Positions 42,365 through 50,134 of a stretch of 64,000 bases of DNA are shown one piece after another. A program made the position numbers and the translations under genes. The notes under the pieces were generated by a model. The model saw only the letters and a program-made list of their open reading frames with translations. It was not told the DNA's origin and ran no database searches. The stretch is from NCBI RefSeq assembly GCF_056712565.1, contig NZ_CM160072.1. One strand, given 5' to 3'. Each line of letters begins with the position of its first letter. The stretch's first letter is position 1.

Positions 42365-43732
42365 TCAGGACTTTTTACGCGAGGCTTTTTTACCCCCGCT
42401 GGCTGCGCGTTCAGCTTTGATTTTCTCCAGCAACGCGGCGGCGCTGTTTTCACCGCTGATTAATTCCGGGTTTTCGGCCCGCCACTGGGCGGTGAGTTCA
42501 CCACGGAACGCTTTTGCCAGGATGGATTGCGTCAGATTGTTGACGCGGGCTAAGGCGTTGTTGACCTGTTTTTCTATTGTGTCGGCGTAGGCGAAGAGTT
42601 GCTCGACGCGGCGAACGATTTCAGCTTGTTCGGGAAGGGGGGGAACAGTTATTGGGTATGCAATTAATTTCTGTGCATTAATATTTGATTGACTGACCCC
42701 ATCAGATTTAACTGAATAGCAATATTGTCTCCCCAAAATGCTATTTAAATGGTAGTTAAGATAGTCAGGGTTTAAATCAGGTAAACATTGAACCCTAATC
42801 AAATAACCTGCATAAATAGCTGGTTGCTCTGATTTATATATGGCTGTTTTCCCGACAAGTTCAGGACTATTTGTACGATTGAATAATACATCATTGTACT
42901 CAAGTTTATACTTTTCAATTTCTATGGTATCTGACGTATAGACTAGATCCGTCCAGTCCAACTTTCCTCCCTGAAGATTGCCCATTCTTAATACAGGAAT
43001 GAGTCCTTCTTTATTAGACTTAGATGACGTTCCGTAACTTGGTTTTTTTATAAACTCCCCAAGTTTGCCTTCTCTCCACCCAGACAGGCTTGAATTATCT
43101 CTCCAGTCTTCAGTTAGTTTTCCTCTCACCGCTGCACCCAGAACCGCCTGACGAAAACGTTTCAGGATTTGTGGGATTTGCTCAAGACGTGCTTTGGTGC
43201 TGTCTACCTGTGCCAGCAGCGTATCGAGTTTTTCAGCGATGATTTTTTGTTCGGCAAACGGTACAAGAACAAATGGTAATGTTTTCGCAGAACTACCAGA
43301 AATTTCTTTAAAAGTTGTTCCTGTGCCCATTTCCTCTGCAATATGTCTGATGTTGCGGAGAAAGTAATATGCATAATCAGGAAAAATGTCTGAAGGAAAA
43401 GCAAAACTTTTGAAACCCTGGTTAGTCGCAATCTCATTTGCAGCAATAGCAACATATCCAATCGGTGCCCGGCTACTAAAAAGTATAGTGCCTTTGGGCA
43501 TTAGTTTTGCTGAACAAGAGGAATAGCCTAGTGTAGTTAAATCTCTGGCACCATGTGAGATATATTTCTCTTTATAACCGCTCAAATCGGCAGGCGTAAG
43601 CCAGGCGACTCCCTCACCCGAAGGTGCAAAATTTTCAGCGACTCCCGATTTTGGTGTCCCACCAGAGATGACATCAGCAATGTCGCCTATTTCAATCTGT
43701 TCCCACCCCTCCGGCAATTTCCCAGCACTCAT
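42365..43732 (-). CDS. hsdS: Type I restriction-modification specificity subunit HsdS (family IA), 455 aa
   Basis: N-terminus MSAGKLPEGW, central conserved region (EQKIIAEKLDTLLAQVDSTKAR...RFRQAVLG) and C-terminus (EQAEIVRRVEQLFAYADTIEKQVNNALARVNNL...) match EcoKI-type HsdS as I remember it; the two variable regions differ. Confidence 0.85.
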   Translation of the reverse strand: MSAGKLPEGWEQIEIGDIADVISGGTPKSGVAENFAPSGEGVAWLTPADLSGYKEKYISHGARDLTTLGYSSCSAKLMPKGTILFSSRAPIGYVAIAANEIATNQGFKSFAFPSDIFPDYAYYFLRNIRHIAEEMGTGTTFKEISGSSAKTLPFVLVPFAEQKIIAEKLDTLLAQVDSTKARLEQIPQILKRFRQAVLGAAVRGKLTEDWRDNSSLSGWREGKLGEFIKKPSYGTSSKSNKEGLIPVLRMGNLQGGKLDWTDLVYTSDTIEIEKYKLEYNDVLFNRTNSPELVGKTAIYKSEQPAIYAGYLIRVQCLPDLNPDYLNYHLNSILGRQYCYSVKSDGVSQSNINAQKLIAYPITVPPLPEQAEIVRRVEQLFAYADTIEKQVNNALARVNNLTQSILAKAFRGELTAQWRAENPELISGENSAAALLEKIKAERAASGGKKASRKKS

Positions 43733-45318
43733 TCCTTCACCCCACCAAATGCTTCTTCCAGCAACTGGCGCTGCGCATCCGCCTCATCGCTCGCCCCCAG
43801 TTCACGCATCAGCGCATCCAGTTCAGACAGCGCCTGTACCAGTTCACCCATCGCTTCTGCCGCTAATACATCCGGCTCCGGCAGGTTGTCGGCATCAATA
43901 CTGTCTTTATCTTTCAGCCAGGAGATATCCAGCGAATCGGATTTCGCGGTGCGGATCCACTCGCGGCTGAACTTGCGCCAGCGGCTGGTAGCAAGATGCT
44001 GGTCGGTGTTTTTGTTCTCTTCGCTGTCGGCAATTTCCGTCTCTTCGGCGTTAAAACTCCATTCACCTTCAGTGCGCGGGCTTAAGCCGTGCGGGTCTTC
44101 GCCAAACACGCGCTCAAACGGTTGCAAATGCTCGTCGGTAAACGGCGTGCGTTTACCAAAGCTCGGCATATTGGTCCGCAGGTCGTACACCCACACGTCA
44201 TCGGTGCAGTTCTTATCCTGATTCGGGTTCGCCACCGTCCCTTTGATAAAGAACAGCACGTTGGTCTTCACGCCCTGCGCGTAAAAAATACCGGTCGGCA
44301 GACGCAGAATAGTGTGCAGATGACACTTATCCATCAGGTCACGACGGATGTCCGTACCTTTGCCGCCTTCAAACAGCACGTTATCCGGCACCACCACCGC
44401 CGCACGACCGCCGGGGTGCAGCGTTTCGATAATATGCTGCATAAAGCACAACTGTTTGTTGCTGGTCGGGTGAACAAAGGTGCGGGTAATGTTGGTGCCT
44501 GCGGCGCTGCCAAACGGCGGGTTAGTGGCGACAATATGCGCCTTCGGCAGGTTTTCGCCGTCGCTGCCCAGGGTGTTGCCCAGACGGATTGCGCCGCCGT
44601 GGTCGAGGTTGCCTTCAATATCGTGCAGCAGGCAGTTCATCAGCGCCAGACGACGGGTGCCGGGCACCAGTTCGAGGCCGATAAACGCGCGGTGGATCTG
44701 GAAATCCTGCGTGTCGCCATCAAGGTCGTCCAGATCGTTAGTCTGCGACTTAACGTAGCGGTCGGCTTCAATCAAAAAGCCCGCCGTACCGGCTGCCGGA
44801 TCCTGTACCACTTCACGTGGCTGCGGTTTCAGCAGATGAATAATGGTTTTAATCAGCGGACGCGGGGTGAAGTACTGGCCCGCGCCAGACTTGGTTTCAT
44901 TGGCGTTCTTCTGCAGCAGCCCTTCGTACATATCGCCGAAGTCATCGCGCGACTTACCGTGCGCACCGTTGTACCAGTCCAGTGAATCCATATTGCTGAC
45001 CAGTGCGGTTATTTGTTTCGGCTCGGTGATGGTGGTACTAACATTATGAAAAACTGCCTGTACCAGCTTTTTGTCATCTTCGCCTAAATGCACGAGCATT
45101 TTTCGGTAGAACTGCAACTGCTCCTGGCCGATGCGGGATTTCAGGTCATCCCAGCGGTAACCTTCCGGCAGGTATTCCGCTTCCTGCCCGGTCTCTTTAC
45201 ACATTTTCAAAAACAGCAGCGAGGCGAGTTCATTGACGTAGTTTTGATAGGAAACGCCGCCATCGCGCAGGTTGTCGCACAGCTTCCACAGCTTCGCGAC
45301 CAGATCGTTATTGTTCAT
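43729..45318 (-). CDS. hsdM: Type I restriction-modification methyltransferase HsdM
   Basis: 529-aa ORF with N6-adenine methyltransferase motif (NPPFG); 4-nt overlap with hsdS. Confidence 0.9.
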   Translation of the reverse strand: MNNNDLVAKLWKLCDNLRDGGVSYQNYVNELASLLFLKMCKETGQEAEYLPEGYRWDDLKSRIGQEQLQFYRKMLVHLGEDDKKLVQAVFHNVSTTITEPKQITALVSNMDSLDWYNGAHGKSRDDFGDMYEGLLQKNANETKSGAGQYFTPRPLIKTIIHLLKPQPREVVQDPAAGTAGFLIEADRYVKSQTNDLDDLDGDTQDFQIHRAFIGLELVPGTRRLALMNCLLHDIEGNLDHGGAIRLGNTLGSDGENLPKAHIVATNPPFGSAAGTNITRTFVHPTSNKQLCFMQHIIETLHPGGRAAVVVPDNVLFEGGKGTDIRRDLMDKCHLHTILRLPTGIFYAQGVKTNVLFFIKGTVANPNQDKNCTDDVWVYDLRTNMPSFGKRTPFTDEHLQPFERVFGEDPHGLSPRTEGEWSFNAEETEIADSEENKNTDQHLATSRWRKFSREWIRTAKSDSLDISWLKDKDSIDADNLPEPDVLAAEAMGELVQALSELDALMRELGASDEADAQRQLLEEAFGGVKE

Positions 45319-45394
45319 TGTGAGTTCCGTAAATTAAACAACGGCCCGCATTGTTTGGGGCCGCAGAAGAAGAAATTGCCGAGGGTAATATACA

Positions 45395-45518
45395 CAAAAT
45401 CATTCAGGTTGCATCAAGGCGGCAAGTGAGTGAATCCCCGGGAGCGTACAGAAGTACGTGACCGGGGTGAACGAGCGCAGCCAACGCAGAGGCAGCCTGA
45501 AGGATGAAGTGTATACGT
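45395..45518. repeat. ERIC/IRU-like repeat in the hsdR-hsdM intergenic region
   Basis: GTGAATCCCCGGGAGCGTACAGAAGTACGTGACCGGGGTGAACGAGCGCAGCCAACGCA resembles the ERIC consensus including the ERIC1R/ERIC2 primer regions. Confidence 0.6.
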
Positions 45519-45519
45519 G

Positions 45520-48500
45520 TCAGGCCAGCTCGTCCCAGATATAATCGCTGAATTTATCAAGCAGGTTGTCGAGATTATCGTCAAAGGTTCTTTGTAGCAT
45601 CGCCTTACCGCCGCGGCGGTGGAAGTTGCCGGTTTTGAAGACATCGTCGTCGAGCACCACTTTCTCTTTCAGCGCCTGCGCTAAACGATCGAGCCAGCTT
45701 AATTGCTCGCTGCTCCAGTCGTTTTCACCCTTAATGCGCGTCAGCGCGTGATCGACACGTTCCTCAAACGGTTTCAGCGCATCGCCCACCGCAGCGCGGC
45801 GAATATGACCAATCAGCCGGGCGGCGATATCTTCATTGCGCGTCTCTTTCCATGCTTTGCGCAGGGAAGATTCCTCAAAATGCTGGCGGTCAAACCACTC
45901 CTGGAGCTCGACCAGCCCTTTACGGGTGAGATCGCGCGGGCGATTGATCACCGCCTGCAATGCCGGCTGCGCGTTCGGGGAACGTTGCACCAGCGAGTCA
46001 AAGGCTTCGAGGAAATCCTGCGGCGTGTCGTAATCACCGTACAGCGATTTTACACTCACCACTTCATCGTCGATATCGAGGAAGATCGGCGCATCATTCA
46101 GGTTGTTGATGTCCGTTTTCAGCTTTTCCAGACGGGCGATAAAGCCAGGCAGTTTGTTAAAGACTTCGGCGCTCCAGTGCGGCCCTTTTTCCCGCAGGCG
46201 CGAGGCGAAGCCGTTAAAGTTCACGCCCGCCGCGTCCTGGCATAGCTCATCCAGACGACGCACCTGTTTATCTATCGTTTCGCTGCGGTCACGGTTAAAC
46301 GTGGCCAGGCCGATGATGCGCTGGAGCTTCGCCACCAATTGTTCATGGCTGTGCTCGGCAAAGCTACGGCCATCCGCTTCGGTGATTTTATAGGTTTCTG
46401 AATCGGTAATTTCATTGACCAGCGTTTGCAGTTCCACCTTCGGACGCACCACCACCGGACGCATGGTGTCGACGCTCTCCAGCGTGCTGTAGATATCGAC
46501 ACAGTCGAAAATCTTAAAGCTGGTTTTATTCACGTCCGGGCATAAGCGCGTGGCGCGGCCTTTCATCTGCTCGTACAGAATACGGCTGCGTACTTTACGC
46601 AGGAACACGATATTACAGATCGACGGAATATCGACGCCGGTTGTCAGCAGGTCGACGGTTACCACGATATTGGGCAGCCGCTCTTTATTGAAGCGGGTGA
46701 TCATGGTCTGCACTTTGCGCGCGTCTTTATCGGCATCACCGGTGATCTTGATGATCGCGTCGTGCTCCAGTTGCGGATACTTTTTCTTGAACGCGGTACG
46801 CAACTCTTCCACCACCATATCGGCATGGGCATTGGTAACGCAGAAGACCAGCGTTTTTTGCGACCCGGTCGGGTCAAGGTAGTTGGTGAGCTCGTTACAG
46901 ACGGCGCGGTTAAACGCCGGGATCACCAGGCCACGGTTAAAGTCGGCGACCTCAAAATCCTGATCGTCTTCCAGGGTATCGTTGATCACTTCTCCCTGCG
47001 GGCTGATGCGCTCTACCTGTTCGCCCTTGGAGAGATAAACCCCCTCCTGGGCGTTGCGGGTGATGATCTGAATCGGCGGATCCTGGTCGATCAGAAAACC
47101 GTCGATAACCGCGGTACGGTAGGTATAACGGTAAACCGGCTCGCCGAAAATCTGCACCGTATGCAGCGCCGGGGTGGCGGTGAGGGCGATTTTTACCGCA
47201 TCGAAGTGATCGAGAATGCGACGGTAGGCAGAAACGTAATCCAGCTGGCTGCGGAACTGCAGCTCGCCTTCGGTCTGCTCTTTATCGAGAATATAGCCGC
47301 GATGCGCTTCATCGACGACGATACAGTCGTAACGGGCCACCGGCATCGGTTCATCTGATTGTAGGGTGCGTTTCACCAGCGACTGTACGGTGGCAACGTG
47401 AATTTTGGTGCTGTCTTCGGGGAATTTATCCGTCAGCCCTTTAATGTCGAAAATGCTGTTGAAGGTGTCGCCGTTAATACGCGTATCTTCAAACGCCCCC
47501 AGTGCCTGCTCGCCAAGAGAACGGCGATCGACAAGGAAGAGAATGCGTTTAAAACGCTGGGACTGGATCAGGCGGAACATCATGGCAATTGCGGTGCGGG
47601 TTTTACCGGTACCGGTCGCCATCGCCAGCAGGATCTCTTGTTGACCCTTGACGATTGCCTTTTCCACCGCGCGGACGGCATCTTCCTGGTAATAACGCAG
47701 GCCCAGCTCGCTCATGCCCGGGTTATCGGCAAACCACTGATTCTGTTTTTGCGGTTCGCTGCCGAGCATTTCCAGCAGCTCTTCCGGGCGATGCCACTCG
47801 GGTAAGGCTTTCGACATATTGCGGGTATCACGCACGTCGCGATACCAGATGCCACTTTTAGTCTTCATTGCTGCGCGATATTCGCGCCCGTTGGTGGAGT
47901 AGCAGAAGGGGATTTTAAACCGTTGTTGGCCGCTGGTGTCCTGCCAGCTAGTTTCATACTCCGGCACAGCTTCATGCACTTCATCCGGTGAGTAATGCTC
48001 AAGCAAGGTTTCCCGCAGGAAGCCATTATCGAAGCATTTGCTGTAGCGATACGACTCATTGAGCTTGCCGGGAACGTCGATATTTTTACGTTTCGCCTCT
48101 ACCACCGCGATGGGCTTGAGGCCGACAAACAGCACATAATCCGCAAAGCCCTGATTACCCGTTTCATCTTTCCCGGTCGGCCATTCGGCAATGGCTTTAT
48201 TGACGCCGGGTTCCGGGCGTGCGCCTTTGGAGAAGCGCAGGGTTTTGCTATCGGCCTGCCAGCCTGCTTTACGCAGTTGCGCGTCAATCAGGAAGCGACT
48301 CTCTTCTTCGCTAAGGTTGAGTGTGCGCTTGATGGCCTGATCGGTAATTTCTTTGTGGTAAGCCTTACGTTCCTGTTCGGTCTGTTTGGCCAGCTCCGCG
48401 TTCTTCTCGGCGAGCTGTGCTTCCAGCGCCGCAAGGCGAGCCTGGGTTTGCGCTTCTGTTTCCTGCTGTTTGCCTTCCAGAATGGCGATATAGCCGTTCA

Positions 48501-49032
48501 GGGCAACCAGCTTCTGCTGTTGCGCTTCGACTTCTGCCCGAGTCTGCGCTTTTTCTCGCGCCTGCTGTTCAAGCTGTTGTTTTAGCGTCAGCACTTCCTG
48601 GTGATAGAGGTTTTCGCCACGTTCCGGCAACACAAATACCGGCACCGGGAAGTCATAATCTTTGGTGACCAGACGGTAGTACCAGACAGCCAGGCGGAAC
48701 CCGAGTCGCAGGCACATCTGGGCATCGTCGAGATCGTTATGGTATTCGTGCACCGCCTGGTTACCAATGCGGCGTAATTTGTGGAATACAGAGAGAATGT
48801 TGTCATCAACGAAGGCGATTTTGCCGAGTTCGCGCAGGAGATCGTGTTGATTCTCACAAGGGGGGATGTTGAGTAACAGACCAAGATGTTTCGCTGTAGC
48901 TTCGCCAAACATACGCATTTTAATCAGCGTCGTGTTGGGATCATCCGGGTAGTTATTTTCCGCCGCACAGGCGATGGCATAAGTGAAGTCGTTGACGCCC
49001 TTCAGGAATTCGAAGTTGGATTTATTCATCAT
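45520..49032 (-). CDS. hsdR: Type I restriction endonuclease subunit HsdR
   Basis: 1170-aa ORF with helicase motif I (GTGKTRT) and DEAH-like VVDEAHRG; upstream of hsdM/hsdS. Confidence 0.9.
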   Translation of the reverse strand: MMNKSNFEFLKGVNDFTYAIACAAENNYPDDPNTTLIKMRMFGEATAKHLGLLLNIPPCENQHDLLRELGKIAFVDDNILSVFHKLRRIGNQAVHEYHNDLDDAQMCLRLGFRLAVWYYRLVTKDYDFPVPVFVLPERGENLYHQEVLTLKQQLEQQAREKAQTRAEVEAQQQKLVALNGYIAILEGKQQETEAQTQARLAALEAQLAEKNAELAKQTEQERKAYHKEITDQAIKRTLNLSEEESRFLIDAQLRKAGWQADSKTLRFSKGARPEPGVNKAIAEWPTGKDETGNQGFADYVLFVGLKPIAVVEAKRKNIDVPGKLNESYRYSKCFDNGFLRETLLEHYSPDEVHEAVPEYETSWQDTSGQQRFKIPFCYSTNGREYRAAMKTKSGIWYRDVRDTRNMSKALPEWHRPEELLEMLGSEPQKQNQWFADNPGMSELGLRYYQEDAVRAVEKAIVKGQQEILLAMATGTGKTRTAIAMMFRLIQSQRFKRILFLVDRRSLGEQALGAFEDTRINGDTFNSIFDIKGLTDKFPEDSTKIHVATVQSLVKRTLQSDEPMPVARYDCIVVDEAHRGYILDKEQTEGELQFRSQLDYVSAYRRILDHFDAVKIALTATPALHTVQIFGEPVYRYTYRTAVIDGFLIDQDPPIQIITRNAQEGVYLSKGEQVERISPQGEVINDTLEDDQDFEVADFNRGLVIPAFNRAVCNELTNYLDPTGSQKTLVFCVTNAHADMVVEELRTAFKKKYPQLEHDAIIKITGDADKDARKVQTMITRFNKERLPNIVVTVDLLTTGVDIPSICNIVFLRKVRSRILYEQMKGRATRLCPDVNKTSFKIFDCVDIYSTLESVDTMRPVVVRPKVELQTLVNEITDSETYKITEADGRSFAEHSHEQLVAKLQRIIGLATFNRDRSETIDKQVRRLDELCQDAAGVNFNGFASRLREKGPHWSAEVFNKLPGFIARLEKLKTDINNLNDAPIFLDIDDEVVSVKSLYGDYDTPQDFLEAFDSLVQRSPNAQPALQAVINRPRDLTRKGLVELQEWFDRQHFEESSLRKAWKETRNEDIAARLIGHIRRAAVGDALKPFEERVDHALTRIKGENDWSSEQLSWLDRLAQALKEKVVLDDDVFKTGNFHRRGGKAMLQRTFDDNLDNLLDKFSDYIWDELA

Positions 49033-49219: not shown

Positions 49220-50134
49220 ATGACGGTTCCTACCTATGACAAATTTATTGAACCTGTTCTGCGTTATCTGGCAACAAAACCGGAAGGTGCAGCCGCGCGT
49301 GATGTTCATGAGGCTGCCGCGGATGCATTAGGACTGGATGACAGCCAGCGATCGAAAGTCATTACCAGCGGACAACTTGTTTATAAAAATCGTGCAGGCT
49401 GGGCACATGACCGTTTAAAACGTGCCGGGTTGTCGCAAAGTTTGTCGCGTGGCAAATGGTGCCTGACTCCTGCGGGTTTTGACTGGGTTGCGTCTCATCC
49501 CCAGCCAATGACGGAGCAGGAGATGAACCATCTGGCCTTCAATTTTGTGAATGTCAAACTTAAGTCACGGCCGGATGCCGTCGATTTAGATCCGAAAGCC
49601 GACTCTCCCGATCATGAAGAACTTGCAAAGAGCAGCCCGGACGATCGGTTAGATCAGGCGCTAAAAGAGCTTCGTGATGCGGTGGCTGATGAGGTTCTGG
49701 AAAACTTATTGCAGGTTTCTCCTTCGCGCTTTGAAGTCATTGTTCTGGATGTTTTGCATCGCCTGGGGTATGGCGGCCACCGTGATGATTTGCAGCGTGT
49801 TGGCGGTACTGGAGATGGTGGCATCGATGGTGTGATATCGCTTGATAAACTTGGCCTGGAGAAAGTTTATGTTCAGGCAAAACGTTGGCAGAATACTGTA
49901 GGCAGGCCAGAATTACAGGCATTTTACGGCGCACTGGCTGGGCAAAAAGCGAAACGTGGGGTGTTTATTACCACTTCTGGATTTACTTCTCAGGCGCGTG
50001 ACTTTGCCCAATCCGTCGAGGGTATGGTGTTGGTTGATGGGGAACGCCTGGTGCACTTAATGATCGAAAACGAAGTAGGGGTTTCTTCACGTTTGTTGAA
50101 GGTGCCGAAACTGGATATGGATTATTTTGAGTGA
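49220..50134 (+). CDS. mrr: Mrr type IV restriction endonuclease (modified-DNA dependent)
   Basis: 304-aa ORF divergent from hsdR, as in K-12. Confidence 0.85.
   Translation: MTVPTYDKFIEPVLRYLATKPEGAAARDVHEAAADALGLDDSQRSKVITSGQLVYKNRAGWAHDRLKRAGLSQSLSRGKWCLTPAGFDWVASHPQPMTEQEMNHLAFNFVNVKLKSRPDAVDLDPKADSPDHEELAKSSPDDRLDQALKELRDAVADEVLENLLQVSPSRFEVIVLDVLHRLGYGGHRDDLQRVGGTGDGGIDGVISLDKLGLEKVYVQAKRWQNTVGRPELQAFYGALAGQKAKRGVFITTSGFTSQARDFAQSVEGMVLVDGERLVHLMIENEVGVSSRLLKVPKLDMDYFE

Follow-up and report, generated by a model that had tools for sequence, protein, structure and literature searches.

A full-length ERIC element in the hsdR-hsdM spacer of a type IA restriction-modification locus and its place in the likely promoter of hsdM

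What lies between the restriction and the modification genes of a type IA locus, and could it bear on their expression? The question is raised by the hsd locus on contig NZ_CM160072.1 (assembly GCF_056712565.1), of which a stretch of 64,000 nucleotides, here called the window, was analysed. A preliminary description of this DNA had reported an ERIC/IRU-like element immediately after the hsdR stop codon and upstream of hsdM, with a secondary structure that might influence hsdMS expression or the 3′ processing of the hsdR transcript. The place was given correctly: on the minus strand, the order is hsdR, 4 nt, the ERIC, 70 nt, hsdM, and hsdS (Table 1). The locus belongs to the type IA restriction-modification systems (EcoKI family), and its gene order hsdR-hsdM-hsdS, arrangement, and gene lengths are as in the EcoKI locus of K-12. 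In comparison with K-12, the 3′ end of hsdR is identical in 294 of 303 positions and the 5′ end of hsdM in 299 of 300; the hsdS allele of K-12 is unlike that of the window (464 and 455 amino acids, respectively). Many ExPEC/APEC chromosomes (IHE3034, APEC O1, NU14, and others) have the 201-nt spacer without a single difference. In these genomes, RefSeq annotates the flanks as type I hsdR, hsdM, and hsdS, and the spacer carries no annotated feature, nor does that of K-12. A promoter-like site on the plus strand (GTGTCA-17-TATAAT, 45517–45545), which is a consensus match only (10 of 12 positions), spans the stop codon and the last codons of hsdR and would be directed antisense into hsdR.

Table 1. 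Features of the hsd locus in the window, ordered along the minus strand (positions refer to the window)
Feature	Position	Strand	Remarks	Basis
mrr	49220–50134	+		
hsdR	45520–49032	−	1170 aa, type IA restriction subunit; stop TGA 45522–45520	ORF list; RefSeq annotation of the identical IHE3034 locus; K-12 b4350
CTGGGA, remnant of the ancestral Pmod −35-like hexamer	45533–45538	−	in Trp-Asp codons at the hsdR end	
hsdR-hsdM spacer	45319–45519		201 nt	
Full-length ERIC/IRU	45389–45515	−	127 bp; consensus orientation in the same sense as hsdR and hsdM	
ERIC terminal inverted repeats	TATACAC 45515–45509; GTGTATA 45395–45389	−	TA at both ends	
ERIC central inverted repeat	45430–45469	−	ERIC1R/ERIC2 primer region	
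TTGATG, candidate new hsdM −35	45412–45417	−	in the ERIC right arm; 4/6 consensus	inferred
TATATT, candidate hsdM −10	45387–45392	−	ERIC terminal TA, duplicated TA, and flanking TT; 5/6 consensus	inferred
Predicted hsdM start site	~45380	−		from candidate TATATT
CT-rich tract CAATTTCTTCTTCT	45365–45378	−	conserved; common to ERIC-free loci	
Conserved GC hairpin (GCGGCCC, variable loop, GGGCCGY) and T-rich tail	45331–45364	−	hairpin 45341–45364, tail 45331–45340; terminator-like	
hsdM	43729–45318	−	529 aa	ORF list; K-12 and IHE3034 annotation
hsdS	42365–43732	−	455 aa; overlaps the hsdM end	ORF list; IHE3034 annotation

ERICs (enterobacterial repetitive intergenic consensus sequences) are also called IRU or RU-1 (Sharples & Lloyd, 1990; Hulton et al., 1991; Wilson & Sharp, 2006). 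The element in the spacer is an ERIC of full length, and consensus, primers, and profile all agree on this. The E. coli ERIC consensus of Wilson & Sharp, as quoted in Table 1a of PMC2759123, was aligned with the minus strand of the window, a check that the preliminary description had proposed; 108 of 127 positions (85%) were identical from end to end and without gaps. Paralogue alignments reach from 45389 to 45515, which defines the limits of the element. The interval 45395–45518 given before had located it properly, with ends that were a few bases off. Primer ERIC1R matches in 19 of 22 positions at 45430–45451 on the minus strand and ERIC2 likewise in 19 of 22 at 45452–45473 on the plus strand, the two sites lying back to back and facing outward (chance expectation 0 in 100 shuffles). 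Eight other ERIC sequences, without the present copy, were made into an nhmmer profile, which gave exactly one match in the 64-kb window (45387–45517, E = 7.5e−38).

When used as a blastn query, the element was found in 5425 of 5426 E. coli genomes at a median of 13 places per genome, with 16 copies in K-12 and up to 20 in others. Six paralogues were fetched (puuR-puuC, queA-acpH, yeiL-psuT, aspS-nudB, downstream of ybhI, and yehK-yehL). All of them are located between genes, three touch a gene end by 1–19 nt, and they form two sequence subgroups; the subgroup of the hsd copy, which has the arms ...ACTTCATCC / ...GATGCAAC..GAATGATTTTGTG, also includes the copies at puuR-puuC, queA-acpH, and aspS-nudB. 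The sense-strand RNA of the element folds with −46.9 kcal/mol (z = −5.6) and the antisense strand with −61 kcal/mol (z = −9.1). Compensatory double changes were present in 11 of 34 consensus stem pairs across nine ERIC sequences. ERICs have been reviewed as miniature transposable elements (MITEs) with TA target duplication (PMC2229807, PMC10969869, PMC3184786), and the hsd copy is a canonical, immobile representative.

The only Rfam match in the region 44000–47000 was RF02818 V_AS5, a Vibrio antisense RNA (AS5), which was covered at full length (1–129) by window positions 45388–45511 with E = 8e−8. Such a match, together with the better fold of the opposite strand, might point to an independent small or antisense RNA. 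The hsd ERIC and V_AS5 are indeed alike in their end-to-end alignment and in the same long hairpin. However, the score of 44.9 bits is far below the gathering threshold of 96 and amounts to less than half of it, and host and context differ. Moreover, the scan of 45000–45900 revealed neither a promoter nor a terminator framing the element on the plus strand, and about 13 paralogous copies per genome occur in unrelated contexts. The match is read as V_AS5 being ERIC-like rather than as membership in the family, and the model itself appears to describe an ERIC copy. A V_AS5-type sRNA gene was rejected because the score is below the threshold and the match is explained in this way; an independent small RNA of any kind is extremely improbable.

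The element is no peculiarity of the strain represented by the window, because it is present in K-12 and in about 96% of the E. coli type IA loci. In K-12 MG1655, whose hsdR-hsdM spacer the preliminary description had singled out for comparison, the same element is found at the orthologous position and is identical in 127 of 127 bases (NC_000913.3, 4583118–4583244, spacer b4350-b4349). The K-12 spacer of 200 nt differs from that of the window only in and beside the loop of the hairpin near hsdM. BL21 (EcoBI) and other filled alleles carry the ERIC with 0–3 changes. The hsd ERIC is thus already known as a sequence: it is an ordinary K-12 copy, which whole-genome surveys of ERICs in K-12 must include. 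A literature search for ERIC together with hsdR or hsdM retrieved no relevant paper.

Filled and empty sites coexist in E. coli. A type IA hsdR/hsdM junction was present in 934 of 5426 complete E. coli genomes; the spacer is filled by the ERIC in approximately 895–902 of them, and 35 have an empty site with a spacer of 76 nt. The empty junction reads TGA-CACGG-TA-TCATTCCCGG and the filled one TGA-CACG-TA[ERIC]TA-TTACCCTCGG; extended further, the sequence is TGA-CACGG-TA-TCATTCCCGGCAATTTC in the empty strains 504239, NCTC11023, and EC6563 and TGA-CACG-TA[ERIC]TA-TTACCCTCGGCAATTTC in filled alleles. The single TA at the site of the empty alleles is duplicated in the filled ones, which matches the TA duplication described for ERIC (PMC2229807, PMC3184786). 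A scan across species, which covered one genome per species and used a degenerate pattern of the hsdM start, returned 31 loci. A full-length ERIC upstream of hsdM was detected only in Escherichia whittamii and in two contigs resembling E. coli contamination. Eleven other Enterobacterales loci have an ERIC-free spacer of 70–77 nt (sources: Enterobacter, Citrobacter amalonaticus, Raoultella, Pantoea, Pseudenterobacter, Proteus, Serratia, and Acerihabitans). The preliminary description had considered that the same element might occur in all type IA loci; this nearly holds for E. coli, but not for the type IA loci of other genera. Because of the eleven ERIC-free Enterobacterales loci, and with E. 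whittamii as the only other filled case, the empty state is regarded as ancestral. The ERIC would have inserted in an Escherichia ancestor at the TA located 4–5 nt past the hsdR stop codon and duplicated this TA.

Several observations on the sampled loci are added here. Both contigs with an hsdR-ERIC-hsdM arrangement close to that of E. coli, one from a metagenome-assembled genome labelled Bacillota bacterium (L038) and one of 472 bp labelled Staphylococcus cornubiensis (L031), look like E. coli contamination of public assemblies; the hsdR C-terminus of L038 is 98.7% identical to that of E. coli. In the empty-site strain 504239 (locus L009, 7963–10615), an insertion of the IS3 family splits hsdS. 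In E. coli TG1 (NZ_CP196935.1), the junction query matched the hsdR half only and hsdM is missing past the junction, which fits the known hsdMS-mcrB deletion of this strain. Compared with the window or K-12, the ERIC differs in 0–3 of 127 positions and the adjacent hsdR sequence in 9–14 of 303. Purifying selection on the ERIC was considered and rejected, as this difference is too weak and confounded by recombination. Among the filled alleles compared with window positions 45319–45869, the 5′ end of hsdM differs by up to 33 of 300 positions, and the differences in hsdM, hsdR, and the ERIC taken together indicate that the region is a mosaic shaped by recombination, with a breakpoint close to the spacer.

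Different small mobile repeats have repeatedly settled in the type IA spacer, the equivalent of window positions 45319–45519, either at the conserved TAnnAT or the stop codon of hsdR or directly behind one of them. In Hafnia, it contains a mini-ERIC of approximately 60 nt made of ERIC ends, in Citrobacter portucalensis a REP/BIME-like pair, and in Colwellia three GTAGGTCGGGCTTTAGCCCGTCA repeats. In Thalassotalea (locus L039, 2672–3341), an ORF for a Y1_Tnp protein (IS200-like, RAYT-type; Pfam PF01797, E = 7e−12) is flanked by TAGGTCAGGCTTTAGCCTGACA hairpins. An ORF of 78 amino acids lies between hsdR and hsdM, downstream of the −10-like hexamer, in Vibrio jasicida (locus L023, 7189–7425) and Aliivibrio finisterrensis; no significant Pfam family was found for this Vibrionaceae ORF.

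The target of the insertion is the most specific property of the hsd copy. In 24 of 27 ERIC-free loci, the hexamer TAnnAT begins exactly 5 nt past the stop codon of hsdR; five of its six positions agree with TATAAT in 22 of the 24. In the Enterobacterales, the ERIC-free spacer is highly conserved. Five nucleotides separate the stop codon from TATCAT, for which only TATTAT and TAGAAT occur as variants; then follow CCCCGGCAATTTCTTCTTCT, a GC hairpin whose loop varies, a T-rich tail, and finally the ATG of hsdM. The spacers of the Vibrionaceae are otherwise unalignable, yet they have TACAAT, TATGAT, TAATAT, or TAGTAT at the identical offset. Eighteen nucleotides upstream of TAnnAT, the ERIC-free loci share xTGGGA, which falls in the Trp-Asp codons of hsdR, and a promoter scan of the empty allele of strain 504239 called TTGGGA-18-TATCAT. 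The hsdM-hsdS promoter Pmod and the promoter Pres are known from genetics (PMC2377437); type I reviews did not give the position of Pmod. Judged from this conservation, the TAnnAT hexamer is most likely the −10 box of Pmod. The target TA of the ERIC corresponds to the first two bases of the hexamer, and the element has probably inserted into the Pmod −10 box. The earlier wording "upstream of hsdM" was right but less specific than this: the ERIC lies within a conserved hexamer that is likely the −10 box of the hsdM promoter. The insertion would have parted the ancestral −10 box from its −35 box, the xTGGGA in the last hsdR codons. A point against this reading is that the ancestral −35 box is weak (3–4 of 6 positions) and located in coding sequence, where conservation is uninformative.

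A possible replacement was identified at the right end of the element. The best sigma-70-like site in the window and in K-12 is TTGATG-19 nt-TATATT with 11.4 bits, and the ancestral site of the empty allele reaches 11.1 bits; these scores come from a rough, hand-built weight matrix of sigma-70 frequencies, and approximately 190 nt were scanned on either side. None of the eight filled alleles sampled, among them that of E. whittamii, shows a change in TTGATG or TATATT. At the right junction, 3 of 10 bases past the duplicated TA have changed (TCATCCCCGG to TTACCCTCGG), and one of these changes completes TATATT; the rest of the spacer is almost unchanged. The new hexamer starts 74 nt before the hsdM ATG, compared with 66–72 nt for the hexamer of ERIC-free Enterobacterales, and relative to this ATG it lies within 3 nt of the place of the ancestral TATCAT in the empty alleles. 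Because the new −10 box is near the ancestral distance, a predicted leader of about 60 nt with the CT-rich tract and the hairpin is preserved. The spacing of 19 nt is outside the usual 16–18 nt, which is why the standard promoter scan does not report TTGATG-TATATT. The right arm of the ERIC would supply the −35 box TTGATG and the junction the −10 box TATATT, with a predicted strength similar to that of the ancestral site. A hybrid promoter at the right end of the ERIC is put forward as a candidate only, with a probability that we place a little short of even.

Two other promoter arrangements were rejected. At the left junction, the old −35 box now faces TATACA; this leftover site, CTGGGA-17-TATACA, has lost the T at −7 and reaches less than 5.9 bits compared with 11.4 bits for the hybrid. 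A general outward promoter in ERICs of the same subgroup was also dismissed, as the queA-acpH copy faces queA with poor hexamers (TCGATG / TATAGA). The supplements of PMC4681348, PMC10301672, PMC4161252, PMC7815308, PMC3415461, and PMC4782308 contained no start-site, 3′-end, or RNase E data for hsdM or hsdR of K-12.

The element might also be a neutral passenger, a fixed fossil next to which hsdMS is expressed from weak remaining promoters and by read-through from Pres, with the R:M ratio set after translation. In E. coli, filled as well as empty alleles persist next to intact hsdR and hsdM genes, which accords with this explanation, as does the tolerance of the spacer for other inserts in other genera (REP-like, mini-ERIC, Y1 transposase). 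In addition, EcoKI is reported to be controlled for the most part after translation, Pres and Pmod being active at the same time after transfer (PMC2377437), so that any transcriptional or RNA effect at hsd may be small or irrelevant. On the other hand, the spacer has a single strongly conserved non-coding hexamer, and it is there that the ERIC inserted; the three changes among the ten bases after the TA, one of which creates TATATT in an otherwise nearly unchanged spacer, suggest repair and not indifference. We consider a purely neutral role somewhat unlikely. It is possible, if rather doubtful, that the EcoKI/EcoBI modification promoter now includes the ERIC as a functional part; the old Pmod arrangement, which extends from Vibrio to Enterobacter, would have been destroyed, and the new promoter would have drawn its −35 box from the right arm and its −10 box from mutation of the flank.

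At the RNA level, the ERIC is followed by the conserved GC hairpin, which every type IA locus of the Enterobacterales has in the stretch from the predicted start site of hsdM to its ATG. Its stem is kept across 16 loci with one compensatory and several wobble changes, and its loop is hypervariable. The hairpin was called as a terminator in the empty allele of strain 504239 (L009, 6332–6354), but not in the window. It may act as the hsdR terminator, as an attenuator, or as a leader structure. A terminator-like hairpin downstream of the predicted start site is awkward for the hybrid promoter and may mean a different transcript architecture. Vibrio loci have a hairpin at the corresponding place without a T-tail.

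Given its position between the hsdR stop codon and the terminator-like hairpin, the ERIC is probably transcribed with the flanking gene. Transcripts from Pres would cross the ERIC before they reach the GC hairpin, so the element would make up the beginning, at least, of the 3′ untranslated region of hsdR. It would be transcribed only as the start of this region and fold into a long hairpin. That the ERIC hairpin itself serves as the hsdR terminator, or as an insulator between transcription units, might be expected from a long, stable hairpin directly after hsdR. However, there is no U-tract, as TTACCCTCGG follows the element, the terminator scan of 45000–45900 was empty, and ERIC-free loci already have their own conserved GC hairpin with a T-rich tail further downstream. 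The ERIC was rejected as an intrinsic terminator for want of a U-tract, and a terminating or insulating role is very unlikely.

Another explanation treats the ERIC as an RNA element on read-through transcripts of hsdR-hsdM-hsdS driven by Pres. A ribosome terminating 4 nt upstream would block pairing of the left arm and expose an RNase E site in the right arm; cleavage there would destabilise hsdR, spare hsdMS, and lower R relative to M. The element starts 4 nt after the hsdR stop codon, its sense places GAUUUU (45401–45396) in the 3′ arm, and its hairpin is strong. A mechanism of this kind has been described for Yersinia ERICs next to stop codons: according to reviews (PMC2229807, PMC10969869, PMC3184786), these are co-transcribed with the upstream gene and lower its transcript via RNase E in an orientation-dependent manner, and it was proposed that ribosomes uncover an RNase E site located in the 3′ terminal repeat. 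The AU-rich right arm of the hsd copy could likewise be an RNase E entry site, and such entry would lower hsdR mRNA relative to hsdMS, if it had any effect. Against this stands that the argument is one of analogy, with a putative orientation class, and that the downstream terminator-like hairpin may already end most hsdR transcripts. As the main role of the element, RNase E-mediated destabilisation of hsdR is unlikely. An influence of the hairpin on hsdR 3′ processing or on the R:M ratio, as the preliminary description had envisaged, is plausible by the same analogy. Taken as a whole, the preferred chain, in which the ERIC inserted into the Pmod −10 box, a hybrid promoter was rebuilt at its right end, and the element forms a hairpin in the hsdR 3′ untranslated region, is given an even chance.

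As a copy of ERIC, the element is of no importance; the reference strain K-12 has an identical one, and it is present in B. The small addition made here is that type IA hsd loci share a promoter-like hexamer 5 nt past the hsdR stop codon and that an ERIC landed there in Escherichia. If the ERIC did work as part of the modification promoter, every classical study of Pmod in K-12 and B would have measured a MITE-hybrid promoter, ERICs would resemble Correia elements in their ability to form promoters that read outward, and the 35 E. coli genomes with an empty site would serve as natural controls. These natural filled and empty alleles allow a cheap test of a MITE-rebuilt methylase promoter in the best-studied type I restriction system. 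The result would be relevant to MITE-derived promoters or the R:M balance; it is unlikely to change the view of EcoKI control after translation.

In comparison with the known ERIC/IRU/RU-1 family, the hsd copy agrees in its length of 127 bp, the central and terminal inverted repeats, the TA ends and TA duplication, the intergenic location in a presumably transcribed region, the abundance of about 13 copies per genome, and the presence/absence polymorphism among strains. Nothing structural is unlike; only the −10-like hexamer that it targeted, in the likely hsdM promoter, sets the copy apart. With the Yersinia ERICs (De Gregorio et al., 2005, as reviewed in PMC2229807 and PMC10969869), it shares the location a few nucleotides past a stop codon, the co-transcription with the upstream gene, which is predicted for the hsd copy, the hairpin, and the AU-rich 3′ arm. 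An effect on expression was reported for these; the orientation class of the hsd copy is putative. In a review that tabulates the properties of repeat elements, neither a DNA motif nor promoter creation is given for ERIC (PMC2229807). Correia elements of Neisseria give rise to promoters at their termini (Black, 1995; Siddique, 2011; both cited in PMC10969869). They resemble the hsd ERIC as MITEs that insert at TA, with a −10 box formed by the element end and its flank and a −35 box inside the element; their promoter activity has been demonstrated, whereas that of the hsd ERIC is predicted.
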